A DNA stretch of 64,000 bases from an uncultured Chlamydiae bacterium. GTDB taxonomy: Bacteria > Chlamydiota > Chlamydiia > Chlamydiales > Parachlamydiaceae. A model generated the notes under the pieces. It worked only from the letters and a program-made list of their open reading frames with translations. It had not been told where the DNA came from and made no database searches. This document shows positions 14,679 to 60,345 of the stretch, one piece after another (position 1 is the first letter of the stretch; each line of letters starts with the position of its first letter). The stretch is from positions 1,792,001-1,856,000 of the forward strand of contig CAVWGN010000001.1 of assembly GCA_963754655.1 (NCBI GenBank), given 5' to 3'. The translations under genes and the position numbers were made by a program.

Positions 14679-15183
14679 CTAGTACTCAACCACATTAGTT
14701 TTGTGTATTTAGACTGCTTCAAAGCCCCGGGGTAGGGTGTTCATTTTGTGCAAAAAATGAGCTTTATTTTTCACAATAATTGGCATAGTTGAATAGAAGG
14801 TCGCATGTTTATGCCGTCCTTTCAGGACTCGATGTCTTTTTGATAGAACCCAGGCCTCCGCTTCGCTGCGACCTGGGCTGTAACATGACGGCCCTTCAGG
14901 CCTTAACAAGAGATGTTTAAGTCCCTCTTCTATAGTCCCTAAATCATCTTTTTGTTAAGGCCTGAAGGGCCGTCATGTTACAGCCCAGGTCGCAGCGAAG
15001 CGGAGGCCTGGGTTCTATCAAAAAGACATCGAGTCCTGAAAGGACGGCATAAACATGCGACCTTCTATTCAACTATGCCAATTATTGTGAAAAATAAAGC
15101 TCATTTTTTGCACAAAATGAACACCCTAGCCCAGGGGCTTTGAAGCAGTCTAAATACACAAAACTAATGTGGTTGAGTACTAG
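14679..15183. repeat. 505-bp nested palindrome (shell A enclosing module B with REP-like arms)
   Basis: CTAGTACTCAACCACATTAGTTT...AAACTAATGTGGTTGAGTACTAG; inner GGGTGTTCATTTTGTGC...GCACAAAATGAACACCC at 14735-15126; near-perfect arms of about 230 bp. Confidence 0.92.
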
Positions 15184-16019
15184 GGAGCGTACCTAAAAGA
15201 TTTAAATTAAATAAGTTATGATTTATAATTTTCTCTGATAAAACAAGGAGAAAATTTGAATGAATAGGATAGTATTAACCAATGAAAGATGGATAAAATT
15301 AAAACCTTTATTGCCAAAAGAACGAGGATATTGGGGCAGACCAAGCCGGCCTCATCGTAAGATTTTAGAAGGCATTATTTGGGTTTTAAGAACAGGAGCC
15401 GCTTGGAGGGATCTACCGCCCAAGTATGGTCCTTGGAGCACATGTTATAATCGCTTTAATCGATGGACAAAGGCTGGAATCTGGCAAACGATTTGGCAAG
15501 CTTTAAAAGATGAAATTGACGAAGAAAATTACTCTGTAGACAGCTCAATTGTTGAAGCGCATCAAGATGCTTGTAGGATAAAAAAAAGCCGAAGAAGCCA
15601 TGGGAAAATCAAGGGCCGGAACAACCACAAAAATTCATGCAGTAACAGATGGATTAGGTCGTTGTATTGATTTTATCTTGACAGAAGGTCAAGTACACGA
15701 GAGCACTCAAATGAAGCTTTTACTCAGTGGAAAAAATCCACAAAATGTTATAGCTGATAAAGCTTACGACTCAAATGAAATCAGAGATTTTATAGAAAAG
15801 ATGGGAAGTCAAGCTGTCATACCCAGCAAAGTATCAAGAGCTGAACTAATTGAACATGATAAACATATCTACAGAGAGCGTTGCTTGGTAGAAAATTTTT
15901 TTCAGTTTATAAAACGATTTAGGCGTATTGGAATAAGATACGAAATGAAAACTCAAAATTATGCAGGAATGTTGACAATCACTTGTATTATACAATGGTT
16001 AATCTTTTAGGTACGCTCC
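15184..16019 (+). mobile_element. IS5-family element (IS427-like, two ORFs), apparently intact
   Basis: 17-bp TIR GGAGCGTACCTAAAAGA/TCTTTTAGGTACGCTCC; CTAG on both sides; 836 bp. Confidence 0.9.
15260..16010 (+). CDS. IS5-family transposase, orfA (15260-15670) + orfB (15600-16010) joined by a -1 frameshift
   Basis: orfA has WVLRTGAAWRDLP..YGPWSTCYNRFNRW and VDSS. orfB has TTKIHAVTD, IADKAYDS, YRERCLVENFF..IKRFRRI. A8G slippery run at 15580-15588. Confidence 0.88.
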
Positions 16020-16076
16020 CTAGTACTTCATTGCATTAGTTTGAGATCAGAAAAGATCTAAGAAATGACTAAAGAA

Positions 16077-16104
16077 GAGGTCAATAGGGTTAACTATTGA
16101 CCTC
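16077..16104 (-). terminator. Hairpin terminator for the OMP gene
   Basis: GAGGTCAATAG-6nt-CTATTGACCTC, 13 bp past the stop, followed by TTCTTT on the minus strand. Confidence 0.5.
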
Positions 16105-16117
16105 ATGAAAGGAAAGT

Positions 16118-16837
16118 TTAGAAAGATTGTCTGAGAGCAAGACCCAAACTATGATCTCTTGCATGCTCTCTTGCAACAAAGTAACGATATTCGAGGCCAA
16201 GAGAAGTATCCTGTGTGAGGCGATAGCTAATGCCAGCAATCGCTTGGCCTGCTATTCCATTACCTGTCCCCTTTTTACTCTCGATCAAAAGCCCATCGTG
16301 ATGCACTTTCACATGACCGCCTATGTGAGTATATCCAATTCCTACACCAACATAGGGCACAATGTTAGGACAGTAGCAAGACACACCATCAAAGTCATAA
16401 AGAAAATTAGCCATATAGGACCATGAATAGGTAGAACCAGAAACTTTGTAATTTTCAGCAAAAGTAGTCGATTCCCCATGCTTGATCTGGTTCTTTCTAT
16501 AAGCAACCTCGCCTTCCATGCGAAATCCATTATTAAATTTATAGCCAAGCGATAATGCCGTAGCATATCCTACTCGTGTTTTAAGCTTAACATCATGTGT
16601 GTGGTGAAAATTTAACCAATTTGCTCCTCCAAAAGCACCAACATAAAATCTTCCTCCCTGGGAACAGGGATCACATCGTCCCACACAAGGATCTTCACAG
16701 TATCCTACACATTGATCAGCATATCGATATTGCTGTGGATAATTGCATTGGTTATAAGATGGATTTGCATAAATATTTGCTACTAAAAACAAAGAGATCC
16801 AAAAAGAATAAATCGATAATAATTTCTTCATACTCAC
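16118..16837 (-). CDS. Outer-membrane beta-barrel protein (OmpA-like 8-strand) with Cys-rich N-terminus
   Basis: Signal peptide; FYVGAFGGAN, GFRMEGEVAYRKN, PYVGVGIGY, LGLEYRYF; terminal F. Confidence 0.85.
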   Translation of the reverse strand: MSMKKLLSIYSFWISLFLVANIYANPSYNQCNYPQQYRYADQCVGYCEDPCVGRCDPCSQGGRFYVGAFGGANWLNFHHTHDVKLKTRVGYATALSLGYKFNNGFRMEGEVAYRKNQIKHGESTTFAENYKVSGSTYSWSYMANFLYDFDGVSCYCPNIVPYVGVGIGYTHIGGHVKVHHDGLLIESKKGTGNGIAGQAIAGISYRLTQDTSLGLEYRYFVAREHARDHSLGLALRQSF

Positions 16838-17263
16838 TCCAAATGAAGTTAATTTAAATTTTTATTTGTTTTCAAAAAAAACAAACCTCTATTAATTGAG
16901 CAACTTCCAATTAATAGCCTGACATCTTAGACCTTTATAAGATTTTAAGTAAAGATAGAATAAAAATTTTAAATAATTCAATTAAATCTATTAAGACATA
17001 TCTGTGAGCCATTTACATCTTATTCATTTGATATTCAAGGAAATGAGTTAATTCAAATAAAAAATTTATAACTTTTTATTTTTCATTTGAAATTGAATAC
17101 TCTATGTTTTTAAACTGATGAATATGATAGAATATGTCTTTTGTTAAAAAATTTGATTACTTACTTTTCCTATGTTTATAAAAAATTAATTTATTCTTTA
17201 ATAGAAAAATAATTTTAAATATTAAAATAATTATAGTTTTAATCAAACAAAACAAGGGCACCG

Positions 17264-18226
17264 ATGTTAGCAAAAACAATTATAGCAAGCTTATTTTGCA
17301 TGTTACTTACCTGCGGGAGTGCACTAGATGGATTTGATGTTAAATTTAATAAATTTTCTAATTATTATTTTTTAGATCAGCATATTGATTGGGGAAATTT
17401 ATATCTAGAAGGGGTTGATATTGATTTTAAAGCTGCTGAACTCGCTCAGCAAAAATTAAAGGGCGGCCGATTTGATGAAACGATTCACTCAGTAGTGCCT
17501 AATGATTTTTTTGTAACTGATAGAGAATGGAAGCAAGCGAAGGATTATATTGCGTATGTGATTGGACCTATTCCTAATCTCAATAAAAAAGAAAGCGCTC
17601 GATGGGAGAATAGCTCTAAAAACGTGGATCAACTTTTACAAGATGCCGAGCAAGTATCACCAATTTTTAAGAGAGATTTTCAACAGATTGCTTATCGCAT
17701 CCAAGCAGTCGCTAATTTTGGACCAAATGATCAATTTATTGTGAAATCCAAAAAGAGTTTAACAGAAAAAGTTGATCGAGATGCCAGCTTATTTAAAATG
17801 TCAAAAGAAGAAGCGGTTATAAAAATTGGCGATGCTATAAGAGGAACGATCATTGTAGATCATTTGCAAAAAATCCCGACAGTCATTAGTGCAATCATGC
17901 AATATGCTGATAATAAGGGAGCAAAAGTTGCCTTTAAAAATTTATGGATTGAAGATCGAGAATCGGGATATGTAGGGATACATGCAAAAATTCTTTATCC
18001 TTTACCACATGCGAAAAACGGAACAGAAGACCGTTACATCCTGGCAGAAATGCAAATTCATCTAGCCAATATGGTCGATGGAACTGAAGCGAGTGCTAAG
18101 GAGCGGGCCCACTTCATTTATGAACAAGTTCGCGATGAAGATTTAAATCCAGAAGAGCTCGCTGCAGCGTCCAAGTTGTTCTTTTTAACAGCTATGGAAG
18201 AGGTTCTAGCAAAATTAGAAAAATAA
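17264..18226 (+). CDS. Signal-peptide protein with a RelA/SpoT-like nucleotidyltransferase domain
   Basis: MLAKTIIASLFCMLLTCGSA leader; ordered motifs VKSKKSLTEKVDRD, IGDAIRGTIIV, SGYVGIH, AEMQIH. Confidence 0.65.
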   Translation: MLAKTIIASLFCMLLTCGSALDGFDVKFNKFSNYYFLDQHIDWGNLYLEGVDIDFKAAELAQQKLKGGRFDETIHSVVPNDFFVTDREWKQAKDYIAYVIGPIPNLNKKESARWENSSKNVDQLLQDAEQVSPIFKRDFQQIAYRIQAVANFGPNDQFIVKSKKSLTEKVDRDASLFKMSKEEAVIKIGDAIRGTIIVDHLQKIPTVISAIMQYADNKGAKVAFKNLWIEDRESGYVGIHAKILYPLPHAKNGTEDRYILAEMQIHLANMVDGTEASAKERAHFIYEQVRDEDLNPEELAAASKLFFLTAMEEVLAKLEK

Positions 18227-18382
18227 TATTGCCTTATGATGAATTGAAAATAAGTGTTTTCAAAACTGAAATGATACCAGTTAAAATAGAAGACAAGCGT
18301 GCTTTAAGAGTCGGCGATAGATTGCCTTAAAAGGTTTTTGAGATACACATCCAAACGCAACAGCGGTTGGATGGTGGATTTA

Positions 18383-18841
18383 TTATTGAGGAATAATGCG
18401 AGAGCGACCATAGGGGCTAATTATCACATAAACAGGTTGACCCATATTAAAAGCTTGATCTCGGCCTTGAACAACTGTAATGAAATTGCCATTATAGAGC
18501 TGAACAGTATATTCAAAAGCCATTTGTTGTTTTAAATTTTTTTCAACTAAGGATCCAGCGACAGCACCTGCAATGGCTCCTGCAGCAGTAGGAACAAAAT
18601 TCCCCCTACCCAAAGCATTTCCAACCATACCGCCTGCAACTCCACCGCCAACGATTCCCAGTCCATTATCTTCCAGCTGATCCCCTTGTTCCACACAAAC
18701 ATAACGCACATTTCTGATGACACCTGGATAAGTTGTTGAAACTTCTCCTACTTGTCTAGAAGCGTAAACATTCGAATCAATTTGTTTTGCACAAGATGTA
18801 AATGATATTGCACATAATGCAAGTAATATTATTTTTCTCAT
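18383..18841 (-). CDS. SlyB/Pcp-like glycine-zipper outer-membrane lipoprotein
   Basis: Lipobox FTSC; GIVGGGVAGGMVGNALGRG...AAGAIAGAVAG; ITVVQ. Confidence 0.85.
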   Translation of the reverse strand: MRKIILLALCAISFTSCAKQIDSNVYASRQVGEVSTTYPGVIRNVRYVCVEQGDQLEDNGLGIVGGGVAGGMVGNALGRGNFVPTAAGAIAGAVAGSLVEKNLKQQMAFEYTVQLYNGNFITVVQGRDQAFNMGQPVYVIISPYGRSRIIPQ

Positions 18842-19158
18842 ATTTTATCCTTTTATTTATTTCCATATAAATTGTTTCATAAGGTTAATCAGCTTATCTT
18901 TTCTATGAAAAATGGCTCATATACCTACCTCATCGCATGAAAAGGAGTTGAGTGTAGCAAAATCCCCTATTTTTTGCCCTCAGAAAAAAATGAGTTTAAT
19001 ATTAGGAGTAAATTCAAAAATTTAATTTTATTATTTGATTAAATTCAATTCTGTTTAGAGTGAGGTTGAAAGAACCTGTGAATATCGTTTGTTAAAATGG
19101 TAAAACAAGCCATTTGTACGTTACTGATATGCAATCAAGTTTAATATAGGATGGCCAT

Positions 19159-20742
19159 ATGTCTTTTATTTTCACTCTTGAAAAGTTTGATGTTTTAAAA
19201 AATTTTCCCGATATGAAAATTTTTCAAACAGATTATCAATATGCTGAAAAAAATGATTTAATTAAACGCGTCTCCGCTTTAAAGAATGAATTACCTAAAA
19301 ATCTACGGTCTTTACTAGAAGGGATTTGTCACCCTGATTTTAAAGTTACTATTTATGATAGTGTTCTTTTACACGAGCTTAAAAAAGTTTCTCTTTTTTT
19401 TGCTAAACATGCAAATTTTAGACCCGCTGAAGCAAACCAGCAGGCTTTTTGGCAAACAATTGCTTTCAATTTAGATCGATTAATTCAAGAAAAAGCAGCT
19501 TTTCCATTGCTTAACCTTGATTCAGATATTTTATATGAGCTTTTTTCTTATCTTTCATTGACTGATATTTCCACTTTAATTCAAGTAGCCTATGTGAAAG
19601 ATACTTATCTCAACCCTTTTGTTACATCTACAAGACAAATTCCCCCGAACTTAAAAATAAGAAAGAGTCATGAAGGATGGACGAATCTCGTACAAGAAGT
19701 GCTTATTAACCATCCTTTTTTGATTTCATCAGCACCTAATAGTAGCCATATCCAAAAAGCACGCATCTATCTGAAAGTAAGCAAAGAATGCCAAAAAAAG
19801 CAACCTATTGCTCTTTCCAGTCTTTTTTCCAGTCTTTATGCTCCAACTAATGAAAGGGTCCGCCAACACTATTTGCTTGAATTATCCGATGATCAACTAT
19901 TCAAAAATTTTCTTGGTTATACTTGTCCGACAGGCAAAATTCTTACGCTAGAAATCCCATCCAAAAGGTCTTCTAAATCGCCTTATGCTTGCTCATTATT
20001 GCAGCCTATATCACAATCCATAAATTATTGGAATCAGTTGATTAAAACCTTTTCAGATACTGAAAAATTAAAAATCACAACACTTTTCAATGATGATCTT
20101 CTTATTCTCGAGAAACAAAAACCCATCTTAGAAGTAATTAATCAACTGCCAAATGTTCTCCAATTGGAATTAGAATTTTATCACTTTACGCAATTTGTTC
20201 CTGTCTATTCTGCTACGCGACTTGAATCTTATAACACCTTCATTCACAAATTTCCACAACTCACAAAATTGATTTTAATTGGCAAAGATATTTCTTCAAA
20301 TTCTAAAAATATCGACAATCTTCAGCAACGGTTTCCAGAAGCATTCGAGACTGCTTATCAAAACATCTACCATTTGTCCTTTCCCATCCGAAAGCTTCTT
20401 CATCCCAATTTAGGAATTCAATCAATTCAAATCAATCTCGACTATTTTCCCTATCTTCCATTAGAGCGTTTCGAAGACTACCACAAACAAAAGCGCACCC
20501 TTTATCCAGCTTATTATCTCAAATGTCTAATGAAAGCTATTCTCCACGCATTTAATTTAAAATTTCTTTCAGAAATGCAATTATACATTCCTAAACCACC
20601 CATCGTTAACACATGGGAAGAAATCGCTCCTTTATTAAGTCCACAATTTCAGGCACTGAATCTCCATACTGAGATGAAAATTTTAGATGACCAGATGGTC
20701 TTTACTTTCCAAAAGAATCCAAATCCGATCTCTCTTCAATAA
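19159..20742 (+). CDS. Hypothetical protein with an internal F-box-like motif (putative effector)
   Basis: 527-aa ORF with AGGA RBS; LLNLDSDILYELFSYLSLTDISTLIQV resembles an F-box; weak LRR-like segments downstream. Confidence 0.6.
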   Translation: MSFIFTLEKFDVLKNFPDMKIFQTDYQYAEKNDLIKRVSALKNELPKNLRSLLEGICHPDFKVTIYDSVLLHELKKVSLFFAKHANFRPAEANQQAFWQTIAFNLDRLIQEKAAFPLLNLDSDILYELFSYLSLTDISTLIQVAYVKDTYLNPFVTSTRQIPPNLKIRKSHEGWTNLVQEVLINHPFLISSAPNSSHIQKARIYLKVSKECQKKQPIALSSLFSSLYAPTNERVRQHYLLELSDDQLFKNFLGYTCPTGKILTLEIPSKRSSKSPYACSLLQPISQSINYWNQLIKTFSDTEKLKITTLFNDDLLILEKQKPILEVINQLPNVLQLELEFYHFTQFVPVYSATRLESYNTFIHKFPQLTKLILIGKDISSNSKNIDNLQQRFPEAFETAYQNIYHLSFPIRKLLHPNLGIQSIQINLDYFPYLPLERFEDYHKQKRTLYPAYYLKCLMKAILHAFNLKFLSEMQLYIPKPPIVNTWEEIAPLLSPQFQALNLHTEMKILDDQMVFTFQKNPNPISLQ

Positions 20743-20894
20743 GAGTCTTTGATTGACAGTCTTATTATAAGATTTTACATGCAAATTATTATATAGATAA
20801 TTGTTAAATAATTAGATAAAAAAAATATATTATATTGATTTTATAAAACGAATAAATTAGAATAATTTAAACAAATATTTAAATAAAGGATATT

Positions 20895-22715: not shown

Positions 22716-22761
22716 ATGGATGATAGCAAGGTTCAGTAATAAAAATAAATCGTCTTACTAG

Positions 22762-23600
22762 GGAGCGTACCTAAAAGATTTAAAATAATAACTCTTATGA
22801 TTTATAATTTTCTCTGATAAAACAAGGGGGAAATTTGAATGAGTAGGATAGTATTAACTAATGAAAGATGGATAAAAATAAAACCTTTATTGCCAAAAGA
22901 ACGAGGATATTGGGGCAGACCAAGTCGGCCTCATCGTAAGATTTTAGAAGGCATTATTTGAATTTTAAGAACAGGAGCCGCTTGGGAGGGATCTACCACC
23001 CAAGTATGGTCCTTGGAGCACATGTTATAATCGCTTTAATCGATGGACAAAGGCTGGAATCTGGCAAACGATTTGGCAAGCTTTAAAAGATGAAATTGAC
23101 GAAGAAAATTACTCTGTAGACAGCTCAATTGTTGAAGCGCATCAAGATGCTTGTAGGATAAAAAAAAAGCCGAAGAAGCCATGGGAAAATCAAGGGCCGG
23201 AACAACCACAAAAATTCATGCAGTAACAGATGGATTAGGTCGTTGTATTGATTTTATCTTGACAGAAGGTCAAGTACACGAGAGCACTCAAATGAAGCTT
23301 TTACTCAGTGGAAAAAATCCACAAAATGTTATAGCTGATAAAGCTTACGACTCAAATGAAATCAGAAATTTTATAGAAAAGATGGGAAGTCAAGCAGTCA
23401 TACCCAGCAAAGTATCAAGAGCTGAACTAATTGAACATGATAAACATATCTACAGAGAGCGTTGCTTGGTAGAAAATTTTTTTCAGTTTATAAAACGATT
23501 TAGGCGTATTGGAATAAGATACGAAATGAAAGCTCAAAATTATGCAGGAATGTTGACGATCGCTTGTATTATACAATGGTTAATCTTTTAGGTACGCTCC
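22762..23600 (+). mobile_element. Second IS5-family copy with inactivated orfA
   Basis: Same TIRs and CTAG flanks as 15184-16019. orfA has TGG>TGA near 22958, an extra G near 22986 and an A9 run. orfB 23181-23591 is open. Confidence 0.9.
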
Positions 23601-24556
23601 CTAGTACTCCATTACATTAGTTTTAGCCTATTGGGAGTGCTTCAAAGCCCTGGGATTGGAATGAGATGATTCTCTTGTAGTCCTTCAGACTACATGACGA
23701 GGGCTAATCTAACCCAGGGCGATGCCCTGGGCTATTTTTATTTGAATCCTTTCAGGTTCTGAACATTGGACATTTTAGAAGACTTCCTTCTATAACGATT
23801 GTAAGGCCCATGCCTATTAAATGGTACATACTCCACAATCATTTTAGAGATGGTTAACAAAAAGATGTCCGATGTTCAGAGCCTGAAAGGATTCAAATAA
23901 AAATAGCCAGGAGGGCATCGCCCCATACGCATCAAGCTAAGAGATGAGCGTAGGCTACGCGACGCATTCAGTCGCCGCGCCGCTTCGCTCTGGGCTCTAG
24001 GTAAGGGGTTTGAGAACCCACCGTTCGGTCGCCCTCCGGGCTCGGTCACGGTGGGCTATTACCAGTCGTCCTACGGACTCTAGCGGCATTATCAGAACGC
24101 CTTAAATAGCATTCAATGGCTTCTACATTGCCGCTAGAGTCCGTAGGACGACTGATTCTAGCCCACCGTGACCGAGCCCGGGGGGCGACCGAACGGTGGG
24201 TTATTACCAGTCGTCCTACGGACTCTAGCGGCAATGTAGAAGCCATTGAATGCTATTTAAGGCGTTCTGATAATGCCGCTAGAGTCCGTAGGACGACTGG
24301 TAATAGCCCACCGTAACTGAGCCCGGAGGGCGACCGAACGGTGGGTTCTCAAACCCCTTACCTAGAGCCCAGAGCGAAGCGGCGCGGCGACTGAATGCGT
24401 CACCCAACAAAAAGTAGCATTTTCCAAACACGCCCTGGGTTAGATTAGCCCTCGTCATGTAGTCTCTGAAGGACTACAAGAGAATCATTTCATCCCAATC
24501 CCAGGGCTTTGAAGCACTCCCAATAGGCAAAAACTAATGTAATGTAATGGAATACT
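23601..24556. repeat. About 950-bp composite nested palindrome
   Basis: Shell A/F arms (23601-23720 vs 24430-24556) enclose sub-palindromes at about 23717-23923 and 23961-24401. Confidence 0.9.
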
Positions 24557-24826
24557 CTGTCACATGAGCTTTTGCCTATTGAGACTGCTTCAAAGTTTCG
24601 CTTCGGGGTTGAATCGGCATAAGTAGATCCAATATTATATACACACCGCGGTCAAGTTGACCGCCTTTTAAAACAATGTTCGGACATGAAATAAATATTT
24701 ATTTCTTGCTATAGTGCGGAGCGAATGAGTGTATTGACATAAAAAAATTAAATAACCTAAGATCTGAAAATTAAAAAAATAAATTTCATTTAACTATTAT
24801 ATTAATTAATTTAATTAAAAATAATC

Positions 24827-26104
24827 ATGCAACTGACTCCCCTTCATTCGCAAACACTGCAAAACACTTCTAACGAATCTTTCTTAGACTCCTTAATTCC
24901 CAATGAGATATTAGGAATTGTTTTTGATCAAGTTGTCGTCAATCAAAGCCGATCTTCAAGTGACATTTCTTCTATTTTATTCACCTGTAAAAAATGGAAA
25001 AGTATTCTGGAACAGAATCCCTGTATTTTCTTGGTGCAAGCCCTATTTCAACTTAAGCAGAGTCCTCAATCTGCTATTACACGTTTTCAGGATTGTAGAG
25101 CAACTGATCAAAAGAAACATTTCACCTCGCAGGAACTTAAACTGATTGATCGAGGCAGCAGCAATGGAGAAAAATTTGAAAAATTATTAATGGTTGAATC
25201 AGAATTATTTAAATTGAATAGTTTATTTCTTTCTCTTTTGGATCGCTACTCATGGAATCCTGAAATGTGTCAAAACAGCGCCCATAAAAACATCCAGCAT
25301 GTAGCTAAAGAGCAATTGTCTATTTTAAACTCTCTTGCATCAGGCAGTGACGCCCAAAAATTAATGGTGATCAAAAATGACTCTATCGAAAAACTTTATC
25401 GAGGCACACAAGTAAGTCAAACATGGAAGCAGGCAAAAATATCTGTCATCTCTACACTTAAAAAAAATTTTCACAATTTTAATGATAAAAAAATTTTTAT
25501 TAAAGTTGCTCGCTGTTTTGGATATGCTGTTTTTGATATAGATGGAAGCCTTAAAAAAGATCGAGACATTGTCTTAGCTGCCGTTAAGGAAAATGGCTTG
25601 GCTCTTCGATATGCAAATAAATGCCTTAAAAAAGATCGAGAGATTGTCTTGACTGCTGTTCAGCAAGATGGGTGGGCTCTTGAATATGCCGATGAAAGCT
25701 TTAAAAAAAATCGAGAGATTGTCTTGACTGCTGTTCAGCAAGATAGCAGGGCTTTTCATTGTGCCAATGAAACTCTTAAAAAAGATCGAGAGATTGTCTT
25801 GGCTGCCGTTAAGCAAGATGGCTGGCTTCTTAAATATTCAGATGAAAGTCTTAAAAAAGATCGAGAGATTGTCTTGGCGGCCGTTAAGCAACATGGTTGG
25901 GCTCTTCAATATGCAGATGCAAACTTAAAAAAAGATCGGGAAATAGTCTGGACTGCTGTTCAGAAAGCAAGCACCGCTATTGTAGATGCCGATTTAACTC
26001 TTCGAATTAAACTTGCCCTCACTGCACTCCTACAAATGACACAAGATTATATACTCCATGGTATTTATAAGTTTTTTGGTCAGTTGATAGATACAAGTAA
26101 ATAA
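24827..26104 (+). CDS. F-box-like / DUF4116-repeat protein, 425 aa
   Basis: LIPNEILGIVF...ILFTCKKWKSI; about 6 repeats; divergent, partly hydrophobic C-terminus. Confidence 0.85.
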   Translation: MQLTPLHSQTLQNTSNESFLDSLIPNEILGIVFDQVVVNQSRSSSDISSILFTCKKWKSILEQNPCIFLVQALFQLKQSPQSAITRFQDCRATDQKKHFTSQELKLIDRGSSNGEKFEKLLMVESELFKLNSLFLSLLDRYSWNPEMCQNSAHKNIQHVAKEQLSILNSLASGSDAQKLMVIKNDSIEKLYRGTQVSQTWKQAKISVISTLKKNFHNFNDKKIFIKVARCFGYAVFDIDGSLKKDRDIVLAAVKENGLALRYANKCLKKDREIVLTAVQQDGWALEYADESFKKNREIVLTAVQQDSRAFHCANETLKKDREIVLAAVKQDGWLLKYSDESLKKDREIVLAAVKQHGWALQYADANLKKDREIVWTAVQKASTAIVDADLTLRIKLALTALLQMTQDYILHGIYKFFGQLIDTSK

Positions 26105-30541: not shown

Positions 30542-30658
30542 GCTTGGCGGCGACCTACTCTCCCACACTCTTGTGTGCAGTACCATCGGCGATGAAGGGC
30601 TTGACTTCTGAGTTCGGAATGGGATCAGGTATTTCCCCTTCTCTAATAGCCACCAAGC
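30542..30658 (-). rRNA. rrf: 5S rRNA
   Basis: Reverse complement reads GCTTGGTGGCTATTAGAG...CCATTCCGAACTCAGAAGTCAAGCCC...AGTAGGTCGCCGCCAAGC. Confidence 0.95.
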
Positions 30659-30802
30659 AAAAGTCATATTAGAAATGATCGTTAATCAGTTCACTGATAA
30701 AAAACAGCGCTTGAAGACTCTCTTCACACTCGCTTGATATGTAATTTGCGACCACACTTAGATGTGCTGAAGGGGATGTCTCTTCCTTCAGTAAAAAAAA
30801 GG

Positions 30803-33757
<2,955 letters not shown>

Positions 33758-34053
33758 AAAATTTAGTCTCAAGCAATTAAGTATGAGTACGACTCAACAT
33801 AAGTATGACACTTATGTTATCTATTCTACTTACTTATTTGTGTGAAGATTATCCTCAAGCGTTGATTTTTATCAGTGAATTGTTTTTTTTGATGACGTTT
33901 TAGCATCATCTGTACATTCAAATGATTTATTAAAATAAATCATTCGCTTTTGAGATTAACTTGATTATCTAATATGACTTTCAAAATAACATTCTGCATA
34001 GCAGATCCTACTTAAAGTAGGTTATTATAACACGGATGTTATTTGGTAATAAA

Positions 34054-34130
34054 TGGTGCGGTTACCAAGATTTGAACTTGGGACCTCGACATTATCAGTG
34101 TCGCGCTCTAACCAACTGAGCTATAACCGC
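34054..34130 (-). tRNA. tRNA-Ile(GAT)
   Basis: GCGGTTATAGCTCAGTTGGTTAGAGCG...CTGATAA...GTTCAAATC...ACCGCACCA; CCA encoded. Confidence 0.95.
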
Positions 34131-34141
34131 AAGTGCAAACT

Positions 34142-34214
34142 TGGAGGCTAGGAGATTCGAACTCCTGACCCTCTGAATGCAAATCAGATGCTCTACCAAC
34201 TGAGCTAAACCCCC
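34142..34214 (-). tRNA. tRNA-Ala(TGC)
   Basis: GGGGGTTTAGCTCAGTTGGTAGAGCA...TTTGCAT...GTTCGAATC...GCCTCCA; G3:U70 identity pair; CCA not encoded. Confidence 0.95.
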
Positions 34215-34348
34215 GATTGACTAAAATCGGCTGTCTAAGATTTGCGATCTTATTTTAAGATAGCTATGTTTTCACAGCACAAGGAAGACAATGTACAATT
34301 GATAAAGCTTGCCCAACCTGTTTGCTTACTAAAAAGCAAACTGTCCTT

Positions 34349-35886
<1,538 letters not shown>

Positions 35887-36422
35887 GAAAAAATAAAAAT
35901 CTCGAAAATTTGTGTAGCTTGCCTAATTACTTAGGCCTCTACTATGTGACAGTTAAACCATCACACACAAGCTTTATTATTCATACTTGCACATTGTCTC
36001 TCTTATACTGTCAAAACATCTTGCAGAGGCTCATGGCATCTGCTCTTCTTCTCAGTCACTCTTTCGCTTTTTTTTCGCGATTTCGTTTGTGAGAAGTTCC
36101 TAATTTACACAAAAGGATGGATTTAACGCAACAGCCTTTTTCAAATAAATGTATTTTTTTCAATCTACTCTTATTATAAGAAGTTTAAGATTAAAAATCG
36201 AATACGTTTACGGAGTAAAAAAGACTAGTGATCCTGACTTTTCATGAATTTTAATGATATGTCCAGCTATCCATAAACAATTACTTTCAAGTTGACAGCT
36301 GATATCTTCTATAGATTATACTATTAGAATAATATAAATTAAAAGATGAAATTAAAAAACTATTAATATTAAAAAATTAAAAACTAATATTTTTTGTAAT
36401 AAAAATAATAATTGGAAGTATT

Positions 36423-37985: not shown

Positions 37986-38429
37986 CAAATCCTATTGATG
38001 ATTAGATCACCCTACACAAGCGAGGTTAAAGAATCAGTGCTATCCCTTAAATAACCAAATAGCTTGATTGTTTAATAGCCTGAAAGGCTTCAAATAAAAT
38101 AGCCCATGGCATCTCCCTGGGCTAGGGTGTTCATTTTGTGCAAAAAATGAGCTTTATTTTTCACAATAATTGGCATAGTTGAATTGAAGGTCGCATGTTA
38201 TGCCGTCCTTTCAGGACTCGATGTCTTTTTGATAGAACCCAGGCCTCCGCTTCGCTGCGACCTGGGCTGTAACATGACGGCCCTTCAGGCCTTAACAAGA
38301 GATGTTTAAGTCCCTCTTCTATAGTCCCTAAATCATCTTTTTGTTAAGGCCTGAAGGGCCGTCATGTTACAGCCAGGTCGCAGCGAAGCGGAGGCCTGGG
38401 TTCTATCAAAAAGACATCGAGTCCTGAAA

Positions 38430-39891
38430 GGGACAATTGCAGAATAAACAATAAATTATTTTAATTTACCACTTTCAAAAAAAGGCTCCTTAATATAGTC
38501 TAGATGTAGAAAAACCGTCTTAAACTATACAAGGAACCGAAAAATGTTCAGAGAAAAATTATCGCAAATGTGGAATAACGTACAGTCTACTCTTTTTCCT
38601 GATTTAATCAAACGAACTCATGAACTCTGCCCTGAGTATAAAAAATTAGTATCAATTCTGGAACTTGTTCGTATTGAAAGTCATATTCCGCGATCCTTCA
38701 AATTAGGAAGGCCACCAAAAGATCGCATCGCAATGGCTAGAAGTTTTATCGCAAAAGTAGTCCTAAAACAACCTTACACTAAACAAATTATTCGCCTGCT
38801 AAACCAGGATGAACAATTGAGGATTATTTGTGGTTGGGAGGCAAATCATAAAATTCCTTCTGAATCTAAATTTTCTAGAGCTTTCAAAGAATTTAGCCAA
38901 ATAACCCTTCCGGATAGGGTTCACCAAGCATTGGTTAAAGAATTTTACAAGGGAGAGATCATAGGACATGTGATAACAGATTCTACACCCTTAGAAGCAC
39001 GTGAAAAATCATTAAAAAAACCATGTGCAAAAACACGTCGAAAAGAAAAAGACAAAGAAAGAAGAAGAATGAAAAGTGCTGGAGAACCAAATCTACGTCA
39101 ACAGCAGTTGAATGAACCAGATCTTCGAAAAATGGTAGAACATCTTCCTATAGCATGTGACAAAGGCATGAAAAGAAATCCTCAGGGATTTCACATTTTT
39201 TGGAAAGGCTATAAGTTGCATACTAATGTTGATGATAATGGAGTCCCTTTGGCTGCAATTGTCACATCTGCATCGTGTAATGACTGTGAAGTTGCAATTC
39301 CTTTATCTCTAAAAACAAGCAAGGTAGTAACTAATTTGTACGAGTTAATGGATGCAGCTTACGATTATCCAGAAATCAAGGAATTTAGCCGATTCCTTAA
39401 TCATATACCAATTATCGATCAGTGTTCGCGAAGTGCAGCTCAAAAAAAGGCAAAAATGGAAGAGAAAAAAAGAAAAACTCTTTTAAATTTTAAAACAGCT
39501 GAAGAAAAGAGGTACGCAGAGCGATTTCCCAAAGAATCCTTTAATGCATTCTTTAAGGACTATTGTGGAGGACATAGGATATATTACAGAGGATATCAGA
39601 AAGTCTCTTGCCATGCATTATTTGGAGTATTAACAGCGGCCGCTATGATGTTATTGAAATTCACTTCCTAAAGATCGATTAAATTTCAAAGATTGACAGT
39701 ATCTTCTTACGTTACCCCCTGCCAAAATTAGATCAATTTTTAAAAAAATTCAAAAAATTCGAATGTTTTGCATAAAAGTGTTTTTTTTTCATTAAAACTT
39801 AGTCGTCTAGAATCGATTCTTTTCGATCTCAGGTACAATTGACAGAAAAAAAATCGCAGTATAACACGCTAAATAATTCTGCAATTGTCCC
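38430..39891 (+). mobile_element. 1462-bp DDE insertion sequence (IS4-superfamily-like; family tentative)
   Basis: TIR GGGACAATTGCAGAAT/ATTCTGCAATTGTCCC; 5-bp duplication TGAAA (38425-38429, 39892-39896), or 7-bp CTGAAAG if the TIRs are one base shorter. Confidence 0.9.
38544..39671 (+). CDS. DDE transposase
   Basis: GRPPKDR, IPSESKFSRAF, TDSTPLEARE, WKGYKLH, LMDAAYD. Confidence 0.88.
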   Translation: MFREKLSQMWNNVQSTLFPDLIKRTHELCPEYKKLVSILELVRIESHIPRSFKLGRPPKDRIAMARSFIAKVVLKQPYTKQIIRLLNQDEQLRIICGWEANHKIPSESKFSRAFKEFSQITLPDRVHQALVKEFYKGEIIGHVITDSTPLEAREKSLKKPCAKTRRKEKDKERRRMKSAGEPNLRQQQLNEPDLRKMVEHLPIACDKGMKRNPQGFHIFWKGYKLHTNVDDNGVPLAAIVTSASCNDCEVAIPLSLKTSKVVTNLYELMDAAYDYPEIKEFSRFLNHIPIIDQCSRSAAQKKAKMEEKKRKTLLNFKTAEEKRYAERFPKESFNAFFKDYCGGHRIYYRGYQKVSCHALFGVLTAAAMMLLKFTS

Positions 39892-40251
39892 TGAAAGGAC
39901 GGCATAACATGCGACCTTCAATTCAACTATGCCAATTATTGTGAAAAATAAAGCTCATTTTTTGCACAAAATGAACACCCTAGCCCAGGGAGATGCCATG
40001 GGTTATTTTATTTGAAGCCTTTCAGGCTATTAAACAATCAAGCTATTTGGTTATTTAAGGGATATCACTGATTCTTTGACCTCGCTTGCGTAAGGTGAAT
40101 TATCTAAGAGAAAGTTATAATCAATTAAGCGTAAGCGCAGCTGTGGAGTCACTGAGAAACGCAATTCGTTGATAGCCAATATGTCAATCTCTTGCCGTTT
40201 GAAGGACGACAAGAGATTGGTGTGTATAAAAAAAACAAGTAGGAGGTGGCG

Positions 40252-48912: not shown

Positions 48913-48950
48913 GAGATCCTTTCAATTTGCTAAAACCAAATGAAATGAAC

Positions 48951-50890: not shown

Positions 50891-50936
50891 CTTGGCATTT
50901 TAGCTTATCTTTATTTTTCCTAATATACGAGTCAAT

Positions 50937-53813: not shown

Positions 53814-53885
53814 AAGTGTTTTCCAAAATAATTTATAGGGATTTTTAAACCATCTCAATAGGCTAAAACTCATGTAATGGAGTAT

Positions 53886-54379
53886 TAGTACTCAACCACA
53901 TTAGTTTTTGCCTATTGAGATGTTTTTAAATTCCTAGGTGTTAAGGTAAGAGATGAGCGTAGGCTAAGCGACGCATTCAGTCGCCCGCCGCTTCGCTCTG
54001 GGCTCTAGGTAAGGGGGATATGGACCCACCGTTCGGTCGCCCTCCGGGCTCGGTCACGGTGGGCTAGGATCAGTCGTCCTCCGGACTCTAGCGGCATTAT
54101 CAAAACGCCTTGACTAGCATTCTAACAGTATTACCAAGCACCTTACCTAACATTCAATGGCTTCTACATTGCTGCTAGAGTCCGTAGGACGACTGATCCT
54201 AGCCCACCGTGACCGAGCCCGGAGGGCGACCGAACGGTGGGTCCATATCCCCCTTACCTAGAGCCAGAGCGAAGCGGCGGGCGACTGAATGCGTCGCTTA
54301 GCCTACGCTCATCTCTTACCTTAACACCTAGGAATTTAAAACCATCTCAATAGGCAAAAACTAATGTGGTTGAGTACTA
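53886..54379. repeat. 494-bp nested palindrome (shell A enclosing module D)
   Basis: TAGTACTCAACCACATTAGTTT...AAACTAATGTGGTTGAGTACTA with arms of about 210 bp. Inner sequence is shared with 23939-24401. A solo shell-A end abuts it at 53841-53887. Confidence 0.92.
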
Positions 54380-54521
54380 CGCGTAATTATACCAGAGCAA
54401 ATTAAAAAATTTAAATTTTTTAATTCATTTTTTAAAGAAAGGGCCACATTTGATCTTAATAATGGAGGATATTTGCGTTAGAGGCTGTCCCAACATGACC
54501 TATTTAAATGTCGAGCTAACT

Positions 54522-55559: not shown

Positions 55560-57534
55560 CTAAGTCATCCACTTCTATTTTTAATAAGTCTTCACCTTGT
55601 TCTTCTATCTGTTTCGCATCTTTTTCTTCGTTGACTCCATCACTGTTTTCCAACTCTCTTATCTCTTCATACACACGGTAAATAAGATCTCTATTGACTT
55701 GTAGAGGAATTTCAGAATTTACTTTCTTCATTTCGCGATCTAACATTTTCTCTATTGCCTTCCTAGTATAAAAACAATACCACAGGTAAAGAATTTGATC
55801 TTTTTCACTGATTGATTCTTTAGGAATAGGAGATTGGATGAATTGTTTCTGATCTAAAAGATCTGGATCATCCAGAATATCTAATTCTTCTAAACAATCC
55901 ATTCTAATGACACAATCCTCTAAGTCATCTGGAGCTTCTTTCACGATAGAATTAGAAAATAGATACGTTAGGTGACAATAATCCTGATTCATTTTTTGCT
56001 GATGCGCAAGAATCTTCTTCACTTTGTGAATCAACTTTTGATTCATTTTTAATTCATTTTCATTGAGTTCCAGAGCACCATAATGATAATGATAGGCAGC
56101 ACGGCATAACCCGATAGCTGTTTTAAAGATTTCTTCAGCTTTAGCTGCTCTTCCAATTTTAGGCAAATAATTTTCTATTGTAGAAATTTCAACCAGTGCT
56201 TCAATTGCATCCTCAGTGACAGGGACATCTTGTGCAAAATGAAGATGAATGTTTTTCATGATATTTCGAACTTGATCATCGCTAGGAGAATTAATTTTCA
56301 TTCTGCATATTCTTCTTCTAAATGAATAGTCAATATCAAGTTTTTTTAATTCTTCCCATTCTTCAATGGTGACCGTTAAAACACATTTACAATGTGGCTT
56401 ATCTTCCAAAAATCTTTTTTTAAAAGCAAGAAAGGCAGCCTTATTATTTGCTATTTGATAAAATTCATCAAAAAACAAAAGAATCTTGTCCTCACTTCCC
56501 TCGATTTGATCCCTAATTTGATTAATAAGTTCTGAATGGCCAAAACTTACGCTAGAAATCATTAACCCACAATCGACTTCAAAAACATTCAGTTCTTGGA
56601 GTTCCTTAGGCAGCTTGCCTTCGTGTTTCAACTGAATAAAATGATGAATAAGCGCTGTTTTGCCTTCGCCCGAAAGAGCTCTTAATATGACACTGTCATG
56701 CACTTCCAATGCTGCAATTAACCGATCCAGTTCCTCTACTTGACCCACTTTTGGATCCAAGTATCCTTTTTCCATCTGCTTGTCAAGATTCGTACAGTTG
56801 ACAATTTCATCTGGCAAAGGTCTAAACCAACGCTGGTAGCAGCTAATTAAAATTCCTGTCGTTACGATAATGATAGCAGTAACGAGATAGACTTTAGCTG
56901 TCACAACAAGCATTGGCTGCAAAATATTTATGAGACAATAAGGAATAATAAAAAATTTATAAACGATTTCTACAAGAAGATACTTTTCCCAAAGACTGGT
57001 AAATTTTTTATTCGTATCTAAAAAATTAAATGCTCCTAAAAAAATGTTAATAAGATTAGGAATAAAATAAACAACAATTGGACGACATCTCTTCCATTCT
57101 GAATACATGCGTCCTTTCAAAGAAATATCAGTCGGTTTGAGACAATGAGAAGTATTTTTAGCAGCCAGCTCAAAAATATTATTAAATGGAGCATCAGAAT
57201 CTTCCTGTTTAAAGCTGACCACATTTGTCAGAATATCTAAACTCACGATTTCGACAAGAAAAGCCATTGTTTTTTGAGGGTTTCTTTCCATTCCATATTC
57301 AGTAATCGTTTGAAAAAATTCATTTAACTCCTCCAAATCTTCCGAACGTTCTGAAATAAAATCTTTGATTTCATTTTTCCATTTTATCCATTCATCAAAA
57401 GCACAATCATCCGAAGTTAATGTGCGAGTTAAATCTGTTAAATCATGGAGTTGTTCAAAAGGTGAAGGTTTTTTTGTTTGCCACTCAAAATAAGGCAAAA
57501 AATTGATAGGAAGCCAATGGGTATTAGTTAGCAT
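55540..57534 (-). CDS. Membrane-anchored AAA+ ATPase with a ClpA/B NBD1-like domain
   Basis: [11 protein letters not shown], Walker A ALSGEGKT, Walker B LLFFDE, SFRRR; two or three TM segments ahead of the ATPase domain. Confidence 0.7.
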
Positions 57535-57752
57535 AATGATTTCTCATCCAAAAGAATCGATTAATTAAAAATGAATAGGAGAATCTAAAAAACTCAGTTC
57601 TTTAGAAAAAATTACATCCAAGATGGGCTGGAATAACAAAAAAATGAATAGCAATGTCGCTTGATATCGACAAATACCTTAATAAAATGATTTCCCATTC
57701 CGTCTTTATGGAGACAGTTATTGCTATCTTGCAATATTAAAATAGGATAAGA

Positions 57753-57918
57753 AAAGCAGGTCTTCTGACTTCAAGATCTTTCTACACGCTTGGCCTTCCC
57801 GCAATATTTTGCAGTGGCTAAAATTTTAAGCGCTCGTCCCTTGTTACAGCGGCCTAACCGTACAGGATTTCCACCTGTTTCCCTATTCTCCCTTTGCCAT
57901 GGCGAAGGGCACTTTTCT
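57753..57918 (-). promoter_or_regulatory. Cobalamin (B12) riboswitch
   Basis: Minus strand reads AATAGGGAAACAGGTGGAAATCCTGTACGGTTAGGCCGCTGTAA...GCCACTG...GGGAAGGC...AAGTCAGAAGACCTGC, i.e. the conserved B12-element blocks in order, including the B12 box. Confidence 0.9.
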
Positions 57919-58217
57919 ATCACATGCTTCTTATGAAAGCTGCCCAAATTTATAAACTGCTTTTATAAAATAATCAAGATGAACTTTGGGTTTCCTAAAC
58001 CAAAATGTGCAAATAAAATTTTTTAATTACTTCATATCAATCCCCTTACATTTTTTGATAAAGAGAATAAATTTAAAAAATCAATTTAATATAGTCTTTT
58101 ATTAAACATCAATTTTATTGACTTATAAAACTAAAAATTATAATATTATACGATTTAAAAATAATAAAAGAATTATATTTAATAAATAATTAAAATAATA
58201 AATTAAAAAAAACAATC

Positions 58218-59954
58218 ATGCAAATCACAAATAATTTACAAACATCACAACATATTTCAAAAGAAGCTTACCTAGATCTATTATTTCCTAATGAACTCTT
58301 AGGAATTATTTTTGATCAAGCTGTCAATCAAAACCAACCTTTACATGACATTTCTTCTCTTTTACTCACCTGTAAAAAATGGAAAAGCATTCTTGAAGAG
58401 AACCCTTGCATCGCATTAGTGCAGGCCCTTTTTCAACTTAAAGAGCATCATCAATCGACTATTACTTATCCTCAGGAGTATCTAACAAATGGACAAAAGA
58501 AGCATTTTACATCTCAAGAACTTAAACTTATCGATCGAGTCTACAGTGAAGAAAGGTTTAAAAATTTATTAATGGTCGACTCAAAATTATTTCATCCAAA
58601 AAGTTTGTTTCTTTCTCTTTTGAATCGCTATTCCTGGGATCCTGAAGTTTGCAAAAATAGCGCTAATGAAAACATCCAGCAGGTAGCTAAAGAGCAGTTA
58701 TTTATTTTAAACTCTCTTGTATCAGGTACGGATGCTCAACGATTAACCGTTATCGAAAATGACTTTATTGAAAAGCTTTACCCTAACGCTTTAGGTAAAA
58801 CATGGAAGCAGGTAGAAAAATCTGCCATCTCTACACTAAAAAAATTTTCTAATTTTCACGATAAAAAAATTTTTATTAAATTTGCTCGCTGTTTTGGATA
58901 TGCTGTTTTTGATATAGATGAAAACCTTAAAAAAGATCGAGTCGTTGTGTTGTCTGTCGTTCAGGAAGATGGCTCGGCTCTTCGATTTGCAGATGACAGC
59001 CTTAAAAAAGAGCGAGAGATTGTCTTGGCTGCCGTTAAGCAAAATGGCGAGGCTCTGCGATTTGCAGATGAAAGTATTAAAAAAGATCGAGAGATTGTCT
59101 TGGCTGCCATTAAGCAAGATGGCTGGGCCCTTGACTATGCAGATGAAAGCCTTAAAAAAGATCGAGAAATTGTCTTAACTGCTATTCAGCAAGATGGTGG
59201 AGCTCTTCAATTTGCCGATGAAAGCTTTAAAAAAGATCGAGAGATTGTCTTAGCTGCCGTTAAACAAGAAAGCTGGCCTCTTGCATATGCAAATGAAAGC
59301 CTTAAACAAGCAAATGTCTGGGGTCTTGCCTTTGCACATGAAAGCCTTAAAAAAGATCAAGCATTTGTATTGGCTACCGTTAAGCAAAATGGCCGGGCTC
59401 TTGAATATGCAAATGAAAGTCTTAAAAAAGATCGAGAAATTGTCATGGCCGCCGTTAAGCAAAATGGCTGGGCTCTTCAATTTGCAGATGAAAGTCTTAA
59501 AAAAGATCATCATATGTGGGCGCTTGCCTTTACACATGCGATCCTTAAAGGAAATCATCTGTTCGTCTGGACTGCCGTTAAACAAGATGGCTGGGCTCTT
59601 CAATATGCAGATGACAGCCTTAAAAAAGATCGAGAGATTGTCTTGGCTGCCGTTAAACAAAATATCTGGGCTCTTGTCTTTGCAGATGCAAGCCTTAAAA
59701 AAGATCAAGACTTTGTCTTGACTATCGTTAAGCAAAATATATGGGCTTTTGCCTTTATAGATGAAAGCCTTAAAAAAGATCGAGAGTTTATCTTAACTGT
59801 CGTTAAGCAAAATGGCTGGGCCCTTGCCTTTGCAGATGCAAGCCTTAAAAAAGATCGAGAAATTGTCTTGGCTGCCATTCAGCAAAATAGCGGAGCTATT
59901 GCCTTTGCAGATGAAAGTCTTGAAAAAGATCAAGAATTATCTTGGCAGCCTTGA
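58218..59954 (+). CDS. F-box-like / DUF4116-repeat protein, 578 aa
   Basis: LFPNELLGIIF...LLLTCKKWKSI; about 13 repeats, two of them shortened. Confidence 0.85.
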   Translation: MQITNNLQTSQHISKEAYLDLLFPNELLGIIFDQAVNQNQPLHDISSLLLTCKKWKSILEENPCIALVQALFQLKEHHQSTITYPQEYLTNGQKKHFTSQELKLIDRVYSEERFKNLLMVDSKLFHPKSLFLSLLNRYSWDPEVCKNSANENIQQVAKEQLFILNSLVSGTDAQRLTVIENDFIEKLYPNALGKTWKQVEKSAISTLKKFSNFHDKKIFIKFARCFGYAVFDIDENLKKDRVVVLSVVQEDGSALRFADDSLKKEREIVLAAVKQNGEALRFADESIKKDREIVLAAIKQDGWALDYADESLKKDREIVLTAIQQDGGALQFADESFKKDREIVLAAVKQESWPLAYANESLKQANVWGLAFAHESLKKDQAFVLATVKQNGRALEYANESLKKDREIVMAAVKQNGWALQFADESLKKDHHMWALAFTHAILKGNHLFVWTAVKQDGWALQYADDSLKKDREIVLAAVKQNIWALVFADASLKKDQDFVLTIVKQNIWAFAFIDESLKKDREFILTVVKQNGWALAFADASLKKDREIVLAAIQQNSGAIAFADESLEKDQELSWQP

Positions 59955-60020
59955 ATGCATTGAAAATACTGCGGATTTCTAAAAATATGAAGTTACGTTT
60001 GATGAAAACATGTTTGGGAT

Positions 60021-60345
60021 AGATGATTCTCTTGTAGTCCTTCAGACTACATGAGGAGGGACAATCTAACCCAGGGGCTAGGGTGTTCATTTTGTGCAAA
60101 AAATGAGCTTTATTTTTCACAATAATTGGCATAGTTGAATTGAAGGTCGCATGTTTATGCCGTCCTTTCAGGACTCGATGTCTTTTTGATAGAACCCAGG
60201 CCTCCGCTTCGCTGCGACCTGGGCTGTAACATGACGGCCCTTCATGCCTTAACAAGAGATGTTTAAGTCCCTCTTCTATAGTCCCTAAATCATCTTTTTG
60301 TTAAGGCCTGAAGGGCCGTCATGTTACAGCCCAGGTCGCAGCGAA
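60021..60345. repeat. Truncated nested palindrome (module F + module B)
   Basis: 60021-60077 matches 23665-23719. 60081-60345 matches 14735-14999 and breaks off at CGCAGCGAA in the right arm. Confidence 0.88.

Follow-up and report, generated by a model that had tools for sequence, protein, structure and literature searches.

Bacterial miniature inverted-repeat transposable elements, or MITEs, are short, non-coding sequences with terminal inverted repeats (TIRs), target-site duplications (TSDs) and high copy number. Single-strand transposition of the IS200/IS605 type, as carried out by IS200-like insertion sequences (ISs) or by the transposases associated with repetitive extragenic palindromes (REPs), known as REP-associated tyrosine transposases (RAYTs), is not known to make such duplications. 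As described by Di Nocera et al. (2013; PMC3733652), REPtrons and REPINs with RAYTs and 'TIRtrons' with TIRYTs combine a Y1 gene between inverted hairpin repeats, dispersed gene-less inverted doublets and several gene-repeat pairs per genome. Here we examine a family of long palindromes in a 64,000-nt window (bases 1792001-1856000 of contig 1) from the genome of an uncultured bacterium of the Parachlamydiaceae (assembly GCA_963754655.1; 3.16 Mb, two contigs, 38.8% G+C). The family shares all three features with these systems, but its enzymes are not class-2 RAYTs, its modules are ~90 nt long with three hairpins rather than REPs of 20-40 nt, and its doublets are mostly embedded in TSD-bearing shells. 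Coordinates are positions in the window unless a contig is named.

The palindromes also resemble bacterial MITEs and BIME-like (bacterial interspersed mosaic element) mosaics in being short, non-coding and abundant, in having TIRs and TSDs, and in forming tandem and alternating-orientation arrays, but they differ in having four or five concentric layers that appear to combine two mechanistic kinds. Our literature search found no description of MITEs in chlamydiae, and nested MITEs reported only from plants and fungi, not from bacteria. The explanation that we regard as moderately probable is that the palindromes are composite gene-less elements made of two kinds of part, Y1-type hairpin cores and TSD-making shells, nested by way of palindromic targets. 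In this joint explanation, the cores (modules C, E/F and D, and the type found within the 3448 family) would be inverted pairs of ~90-nt three-hairpin modules representing the ends of units whose only gene is an IS200-like Y1/HUH gene. The shells (A, B, h0 or 'C-long', x, G and the 3448 family) would be miniature inverted-repeat elements that make TSDs and are most likely moved by DDE-type transposases. If correct, this shows how short palindromic targets let mobile elements stack into long near-perfect palindromes.

Long palindromes and their copies across the genome

A repeat search of the window yielded 20 inverted pairs of at least 30 nt, within 3 kb, that cover all six sites at which a first-pass annotation had claimed long palindromes, and revealed a seventh palindrome that had no entry there (arms 3448-3569/3648-3769, 122 nt, 99%). 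As a chance control, 952 of the window's 20-mers had their reverse complement at most 3 kb away, compared with 0 in each of 20 dinucleotide shuffles. All of the palindromic elements are intergenic, lying between open reading frames (ORFs). It is extremely improbable that they are assembly artefacts: the assembly consists of two contigs, the 44 full-length copies of one composite, B[C], have differing flanks, and independently assembled relatives carry inverted arms of 90-113 nt around the same gene (Y1d, below). The palindromes are genuine, and across the genome they make up stacks of mobile DNA that carries no genes.

Mapping the modules with BLAST reproduced the nested architectures proposed earlier (A[B[C]], A[F,E,D], x[E[B[C+IS]]], A[D], F[B..] and x[C]) and supported the view that the elements are non-autonomous, modular and mutually inserted. 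The observed anatomy is clearest in the element at 14679-15183, A[B[h0[C loop C']]], which has inverted arms at 14725-14909/14952-15136 (185 nt, 99%) and outer arms at 14678-14732/15130-15184. From outside to inside, it consists of A (14683-14732/15130-15179), B (14733-14781/15080-15128), h0 (14782-14815/15046-15079) and C (14816-14902, + strand; 14959-15045, - strand), with a 56-nt asymmetric loop. The element at 38007-40098, x2[E[B[h0[C C' + IS]]]], has inverted arms at 38007-38215/39890-40098 (209 nt, 98%) and is built of an outer shell (38007-38078/40027-40098), E (38079-38125/39980-40026), B (38123-38171/39934-39982), h0 (38172-38204/39901-39933) and C (38205-38291, +; 38348-38431, -).

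The element at 23601-24556 is read as A2 enclosing F-E, a centre, E', D doublets and F', with inverted arms at 23610-23689/24465-24544 and 23961-24169/24193-24401. Its parts are A2 (23605-23654/24500-24544), E/F (23678-23760, +), E' (23878-23923, -), F' (24431-24476, -) and D arms (23938-24103, +; 24259-24401, -) that are inserted in the right h2 hairpin. At 53886-54379 (inverted arms 53886-54001/54264-54379), an A variant with outer arms 53886-53942/54323-54379 encloses a D doublet (53946-54112, +; 54170-54319, -). The element at 60021-60345 is a truncated half, F[B[h0[C.., with F at 60035-60076, B at 60079-60127, h0 at 60128-60161, C at 60162-60248 (+) and a partial inverted C at 60298-60345 (inverted arms 60208-60255/60298-60345). 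At 5106-5525, with inverted arms 5108-5227/5402-5521 (120 nt, 98%), x TIRs (5106-5151, +; 5478-5518, -) enclose two C modules (5162-5247, -; 5381-5467, +) around a centre at 5254-5372. The seventh palindrome, at 3448-3769, is a 322-bp palindromic MITE with ends GGGTGTGATTAAATC and flanks TAACTATCC and TAATTATCC, and it gives the 3448 family its name.

The first-pass annotation had called for a genome-wide search with the modules, and they indeed recur at ~200 loci; pieces of the 14679-15183 element alone are carried by 208. Sixteen-mers occurring at least eight times cover 12.2% of contig 1, a figure in which ISs and repeat-protein genes are counted. Observed arm counts in the BLAST map, at 80% or more of module length, were 265 for C, 201 for h0, 179 for B, 115 for A, 71 for A2 (A and A2 cross-match), 75 for D and 66 for the 3448 type, and E/F was represented by 35 full and 96 partial arms. 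Composites are copied whole: there are six full-length copies of A[B[C]] (94-100% identity), 44 of B[C], 55 of C-long (the 298-bp unit h0[C loop C']), five of the x element, 26 of the 3448 family and 12 of A-variant[D] (83-100% identity). Among 296 C modules, 192 adjoin the h0 shell and 17 an x end; 78 neighbouring C pairs are arranged head-to-head at 50-59 nt, and 24 as direct repeats at 70-89 nt. It therefore appears that the majority of C copies spread within shells bounded by TSDs, and some of them as tandem arrays.

Y1 genes, hairpin modules and the Acido-Lenti-1 motif

The first-pass annotation had suggested mobilisation by RAYT/Y1 transposases. The Pfam family PF01797 (Y1_Tnp) has 10 matches in the genome, eight of which were inspected as open frames (Y1a-Y1h). 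One of these encodes a classical IS200 transposase (144.7 bits), is present in a single copy and has no adjoining repeats, six are intact genes for proteins of ~150 aa, with Y1c and Y1e near-identical, and the remaining one is a fragment. In an alignment of 11 sequences (the paralogues and five relatives), residues D54, H55, H57, W95, Q96, Y115, Q119 and H123 are invariant and H122 is nearly so, with the motif variants DHLH in Y1g and ..EYH in Y1f. The proteins thus carry the signature DH[IV]H, WQ, Y...Q..HH listed for TnpA-Y1 subclass 1.2 by Quentin, Siguier, Chandler and Fichant (2018; PMC6006769, Table 1), and they resemble this subclass in being ~150 aa long, in having a conserved C-terminal tail and in the low identity of copies within one genome. 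They score 63-73 bits against the IS200 model NF033573 (cut-off 55) and 22-25 bits against NF047646, the NCBIfam RAYT model (cut-off 80). Because of the latter scores we do not consider them classical RAYTs; by sequence they fit subclass 1.2.

The entry for this subclass in the same survey reads 'REP: no', the group is described as lacking typical IS200 end hairpins, and it is placed mainly in Cyanobacteria and Bacteroidetes (PMC6006769). In contrast, the genes found here belong to a chlamydia-like genome and have alongside them three-hairpin modules whose copy numbers have risen into the tens or hundreds, and inverted hairpin modules flank such genes both here and in other phyla. The observed adjacency of gene and module differs among the paralogues. 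Y1d sits between inverted C modules, and its flanks draw ~300 BLAST matches; Y1c and Y1e have an E-type hairpin pair on the 5' side and an F hairpin directly after the stop codon; Y1g has a D-type hairpin and a D palindrome on the 3' side and nothing on the 5' side; and Y1b and Y1f have flank repeats of their own. The inner arms of the 3448 family resemble the hairpin flank of Y1b, as judged by eye.

The search for IS200/RAYT-type Y1 genes next to modules C, D and E that the first-pass annotation had recommended was thus successful for C and E, and one-sided for D. In keeping with the suggested Y1 enzymes, module-flanked Y1/HUH genes exist elsewhere in the genome; the RAYT part of the suggestion is not supported, given the enzyme class and the TSDs of the shells. 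In REPtron terms, Y1d with C and Y1c/e with E and F have the gene between inverted copies of a dispersed repeat, and the class-2 RAYT protein signature (NF047646) is absent. The genome would therefore hold five or six Y1 genes of subclass 1.2, each matched to its own hairpin module, for a group to which the published survey assigns no partner DNA. Action of the Y1 proteins on these hairpins is putative.

Folding as single-stranded DNA gave three hairpins in E/F (z -4.6) and in the Y1f module (z -3.5), and was less distinct for C (z -1.4) and D (z -1.9). A Y1d-type remnant at 5217-5372 (+), a weak match (tblastn E 0.031) that reads ..DFA.Q..LEG..KYLWD and a stop, ends exactly as the intact gene does, directly before hairpin h1. 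The palindrome at 5106-5525 thus reads as x[C' - Y1d remnant - C], derived from the Y1d-bearing unit but now gene-less, with only a decayed 3' remnant of the gene. Ten other loci of the genome carry Y1c-type fragments. No boundary of their own could be defined for the cores, and duplications are seen at the shells around them.

Judged from sequence comparison, module C appears to be the Acido-Lenti-1 motif of Rfam (RF01687), which Weinberg et al. (2010; PMC2864571) present with a two-hairpin consensus consisting of CCCAGG..CCTGGG, a linker and a hairpin of the GGCC-loop-GGCC type. RF01687 has four matches in the window, at 5161-5215 (-), 5414-5468 (+), 14849-14903 (+) and 14958-15012 (-), all at 36.4 bits and hence 0.6 bit under the gathering score of 37. 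In the genome (copies at 36.4-38.7 bits), there are 150 matches at E<=0.01 among the 150 candidates scored out of 1077, and 11 copies exceed the gathering score (37.1-38.7 bits). The flanks of orthologous Y1 genes elsewhere score 37-50 bits.

Homologues of Y1d occur in 20 of the 41 genomes of the order, own genome included. RF01687 was found at six of 19 relatives' loci tested, on both sides of the gene in three of them, and in five relatives inspected the gene is bracketed by inverted arms of 41-113 nt (91-113 nt in four). A scan of one genome per species returned more than 600 Y1d homologues from many phyla. Twelve of the first 20 loci tested in other phyla have RF01687, the upstream matches (40-100 nt from the gene) being on the '-' strand and the downstream ones on the '+' strand, and all 21 matches at E<=0.01 in the Rfam scan of other phyla are to this family. 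Inverted matches between the two flanks reach at least 30 bits in 56 of 77 loci, compared with 30 of 77 for the direct control, which is high since hairpins match themselves either way round.

Rfam files Acido-Lenti-1 as a small RNA (sRNA) gene, and a 2026 preprint (10.64898/2026.10.21.760802) still refers to the family as 'of unknown function'. The matches in the window and the genome might accordingly be taken to mean that the inner modules are structured sRNA genes and the palindromes arrays of them. This is very unlikely, because hundreds of copies in both orientations, mirror pairs and a fixed geometry around Y1 genes across phyla point to DNA-like behaviour around a transposase-like gene. 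Our literature search found no paper tying Acido-Lenti-1 to a transposase and nothing further on repeats of TnpAY1 subclass 1.2; Di Nocera et al. (PMC3733652) report 'TIRtrons' in Acidobacteria in an account that does not name the Rfam motif where these are described. The association would connect an abundant orphan Rfam motif to subclass 1.2 Y1 genes, and in annotation such loci are better masked as repeats than called as sRNA genes or terminators. One-armed tandem direct arrays of up to six or seven C copies lie at contig 1 1766751-1768402, 989631-990379 and 1026610-1027475, the last two with an RF01687 spacing of 124 bp.

Shells, target-site duplications and resident insertion sequences

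Split BLAST alignments, screened automatically for filled and empty sites, gave 648 candidate insertions without a clean duplication length, palindromes aligning to themselves in both orientations. This approach was dropped, and element ends were inspected one by one. CTAG is observed outside A at 83 of 109 termini on the left and at 68 of 123 on the right; of 83 pairs, 43 have it at both ends. Two A copies occupy the CTAG of module D, which is single in the window's uninterrupted D paralogues. Genome-wide, 30 termini of the 3448 family were counted on the left and 30 on the right. The flanks of its 21 paired copies show an exact direct repeat of 8-9 bp in 11 cases, one with a single mismatch in five and none in five; these repeats are of unrelated sequence. 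C-long at unique sites likewise has repeats of 8-9 bp (e.g. AAAATAGA, AAAATTTTT, ATCAGTCA and CTGCTTTA), and the x shell has direct repeats of 5-7 bp in six of eight pairs, as read from the flanks by eye. At the centre of A lies G, a 57-bp palindrome between CCCCGGGG-like octamers.

Because the shells make TSDs, mobilisation by DDE-type transposases is the most likely way in which they moved, and because such TSDs are not known from IS200/RAYT-type transposition, at least two enzyme classes were presumably involved. TIRs, a TSD, non-coding sequence and many copies are found together in A, in the 3448 family and in C-long at unique sites. The search for an autonomous partner whose ends match succeeded for the E/F unit alone; it found none for A, B, C-long, x and the 3448 family. 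Three candidates for such a role were rejected. A 1.6-kb stretch between A-like ends (contig 1, 1956343-1957941), considered as an autonomous A, turned out to be A[F[..]] carrying an inserted IS5-like element, a 1.7-kb stretch between x ends was accounted for by an IS481-type insertion, and the ends of an IS256-like element do not match those of the 3448 family.

An alternative to the two-part explanation is that all layers, shells included, were moved in trans as single-stranded hairpin DNA by Y1/HUH proteins, as in a pure REPIN/RAYT system. Y1 genes flanked by modules do exist, the x and 3448 shells enclose only Y1-derived material with no end-matched DDE partner found, and the 'TIRtrons' described by Di Nocera et al. 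(PMC3733652) offer a precedent of Y1 genes within long TIRs that form repeat families. The direct repeats of 4, 6 and 8-9 bp at A, x, C-long and the 3448 family nevertheless speak against such a mode of movement, as does the location of 192 of the 296 C modules inside an h0 shell rather than in free doublets, and we consider this alternative unlikely. Since the x and 3448 elements combine only Y1-derived content, inverted-repeat ends and TSDs of 6-9 bp with the lack of a DDE partner, it is conceivable that subclass 1.2 Y1/HUH proteins move hairpin-ended DNA and leave staggered-cut duplications, although Y1 transposases are not known to act in this way; this, too, seems improbable. In a milder form, the extruded hairpin tips of palindromic MITEs may be preferred landing sites for Y1-moved doublets, such that the 'onions' self-assemble.

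Both of the following resident ISs show target preferences of the shells, CTAG for an IS5-like element and GCCCWGGGC for a 1.85-kb IS. The IS5-like element (838 bp) is represented at 15185-16020 (+), at the CTAG bounding A, with ORFs 15260-15670 and 15600-16010 matching DUF4096 and DDE_Tnp_1 (Pfam). A second, full-length copy (22763-23601, +; 97.5% identity) adjoins the A-variant end of the next palindrome. Counted from the flanks, CTAG brackets 20 of the 23 paired copies, and 17 of the 23 adjoin an A terminus. CTAG is found at half its expected frequency (1.74 observed vs 3.52 per kb), and A ends account for only ~150 of ~5400 CTAG sites, yet these are the sites that 17 of the 23 copies adjoin.

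The 1.85-kb IS (e.g. contig 1 88094-89940) has 10 copies of 98-100% identity and a 470-aa ORF without a Pfam match. Identical 9-bp flanks, all GCCCWGGGC-like, are present in nine of its 10 copies, and many of its sites lie in h2 stems of the hairpin modules, those of C, E/F and D among them. On its outer side the E/F unit ends in TTGGAATGAGA, followed by the F hairpin and ACGAGGGCTAA, and the left end of the IS reads TGGGATGAGAAAACGAGGGCTAA. Because this outer end matches the left end of the IS, sharing its terminal TGGGATGAGA.. and ACGAGGGCTAA, the E/F unit looks like a derivative of the 1.85-kb IS with a Y1c-type hairpin inside; the ends of the IS differ, however, from those of B, G, C-long and the 3448 family.

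Another DDE-type IS, at 38432-39889 (+; ORF 38544-39671, DDE_Tnp_1 and DUF772; 10 copies), lies in hairpin h1 of the right C module of the 38007-40098 element, with a duplication that could equally be GAA (3 bp) or CCTGAAAGG (9 bp), the two being indistinguishable. The genome also contains IS256-like (eight copies), IS481-like and second IS5-type elements, and 15 TnpB (OrfB_IS605) and 11 serine-recombinase ORFs suggest an IS607-type family. Two further repeats were noted. An 'H' shell surrounds C-long at contig 1 1081524-1081915 and five other loci, with flanks that are mirror-symmetric past the mapped part (aaaattaatt and aattaatttt), so that the palindrome is larger than mapped. 'K', a 144-bp hairpin unit (76 left and 70 right termini) paired around a ~370-bp centre (e.g. 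contig 1 146170-146823), is flanked by GCCCWGGGC or GCCCACCGT and is another family aimed at these targets, including the module D stem.

Nesting, symmetry and palindrome tolerance

In the two-part explanation, the short palindromic targets would come from the elements themselves. The observed target motifs are the h2 stems CCCAGGG/CCCTGGG, the CCCCGGGG centre of A, and CTAG in D and at A ends. A palindromic insert at the dyad centre of a palindromic target would give a larger palindrome, and since the duplicated target is itself palindromic, the host would stay symmetric; the composite could then be copied as a unit via its outermost ends. Palindromic target sites within other elements would thus explain much of the nesting and the retained symmetry. 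Asymmetric insertions do break symmetry, as seen for the D doublets in the right arm of the 23601-24556 element and the IS in that at 38007-40098. We infer the assignment of a particular enzyme to each layer.

Several observations weigh against this explanation or parts of it. On the side of the cores, the link between Y1g and D is one-sided, the RF01687 matches in the window remain under the gathering score and the direct control for inverted flanks is high. On the side of the shells, we found no resident transposase gene in the genome that is bracketed by A, B, C-long, x or 3448-family ends, and the G flanks are exactly identical (8 bp) in only five of 23 pairs. Moreover, the junctions of B and of H with h0 have mirror flanks (..AATT, AATT..) rather than direct repeats, the CCCWGGG flanks of B are direct in nine cases and inverted in nine, and D units have mirror-image flanks in 20 of 27 pairs. 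For orthologous empty sites, three same-genus genomes were consulted, in which flanking genes are only 69-78% identical and the modules are hardly shared.

The mirrored flanks at B, H and D and the even split at B would be accounted for if symmetry arose during replication or repair, i.e. if template switching or snap-back synthesis at a hairpin made an inverted copy of the flank, the palindrome grew outward and the product then spread by recombination or as a unit. Three private variants mirrored in both arms of one copy also agree with such a process. Against it stand 24 singleton variants that are unmirrored, the clear duplications at unique sites and the many dispersed near-identical copies with unrelated flanks, and as a general explanation it appears quite unlikely; template switching during replication or recombination between palindromic copies may still have contributed. 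The presence of 88 of 140 common subfamily variants in both arms of a copy, together with the unmirrored singletons, fits the copying of whole palindromes followed by independent decay. Homogenisation from arm to arm was considered and rejected, the ratio of unmirrored singletons to mirrored private variants indicating no strong templating between arms.

The first-pass annotation had also advised checking for sbcCD. SbcD (TIGR00619) has 0 matches in the genome and was found in 13 of 14 control genomes, and SbcC reaches only 21-22 bits against a cut-off of 478. SbcD scores above its cut-off in four of 41 genomes of the order and in 0 of the four genomes of the genus. The lack of SbcD may let long palindromes persist, and the genome is a natural case in which many palindromes of 300-2000 bp are kept where SbcD was not found.

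Other features of the genome and window were noted in passing. Four TLC nucleotide-transporter genes are present in the genome, and 0 of 14 control genomes have a match. Among public sequencing runs, a soil metagenome contained a 0.46 share of the sampled words and a further run a 0.27 share. In the window, five ORFs of DUF4116 repeats (2 to 11 each) at 1697-3439, 3837-4142, 5643-7235, 24827-26104 and 58218-59954 make up a large family of paralogues, which contributes further to the repeat content. The window also contains a cobalamin riboswitch (105 bits) at 57738-57931 (-) and, at 30542-35889 (-), a complete rRNA operon whose spacer contains tRNA-Ile and tRNA-Ala.

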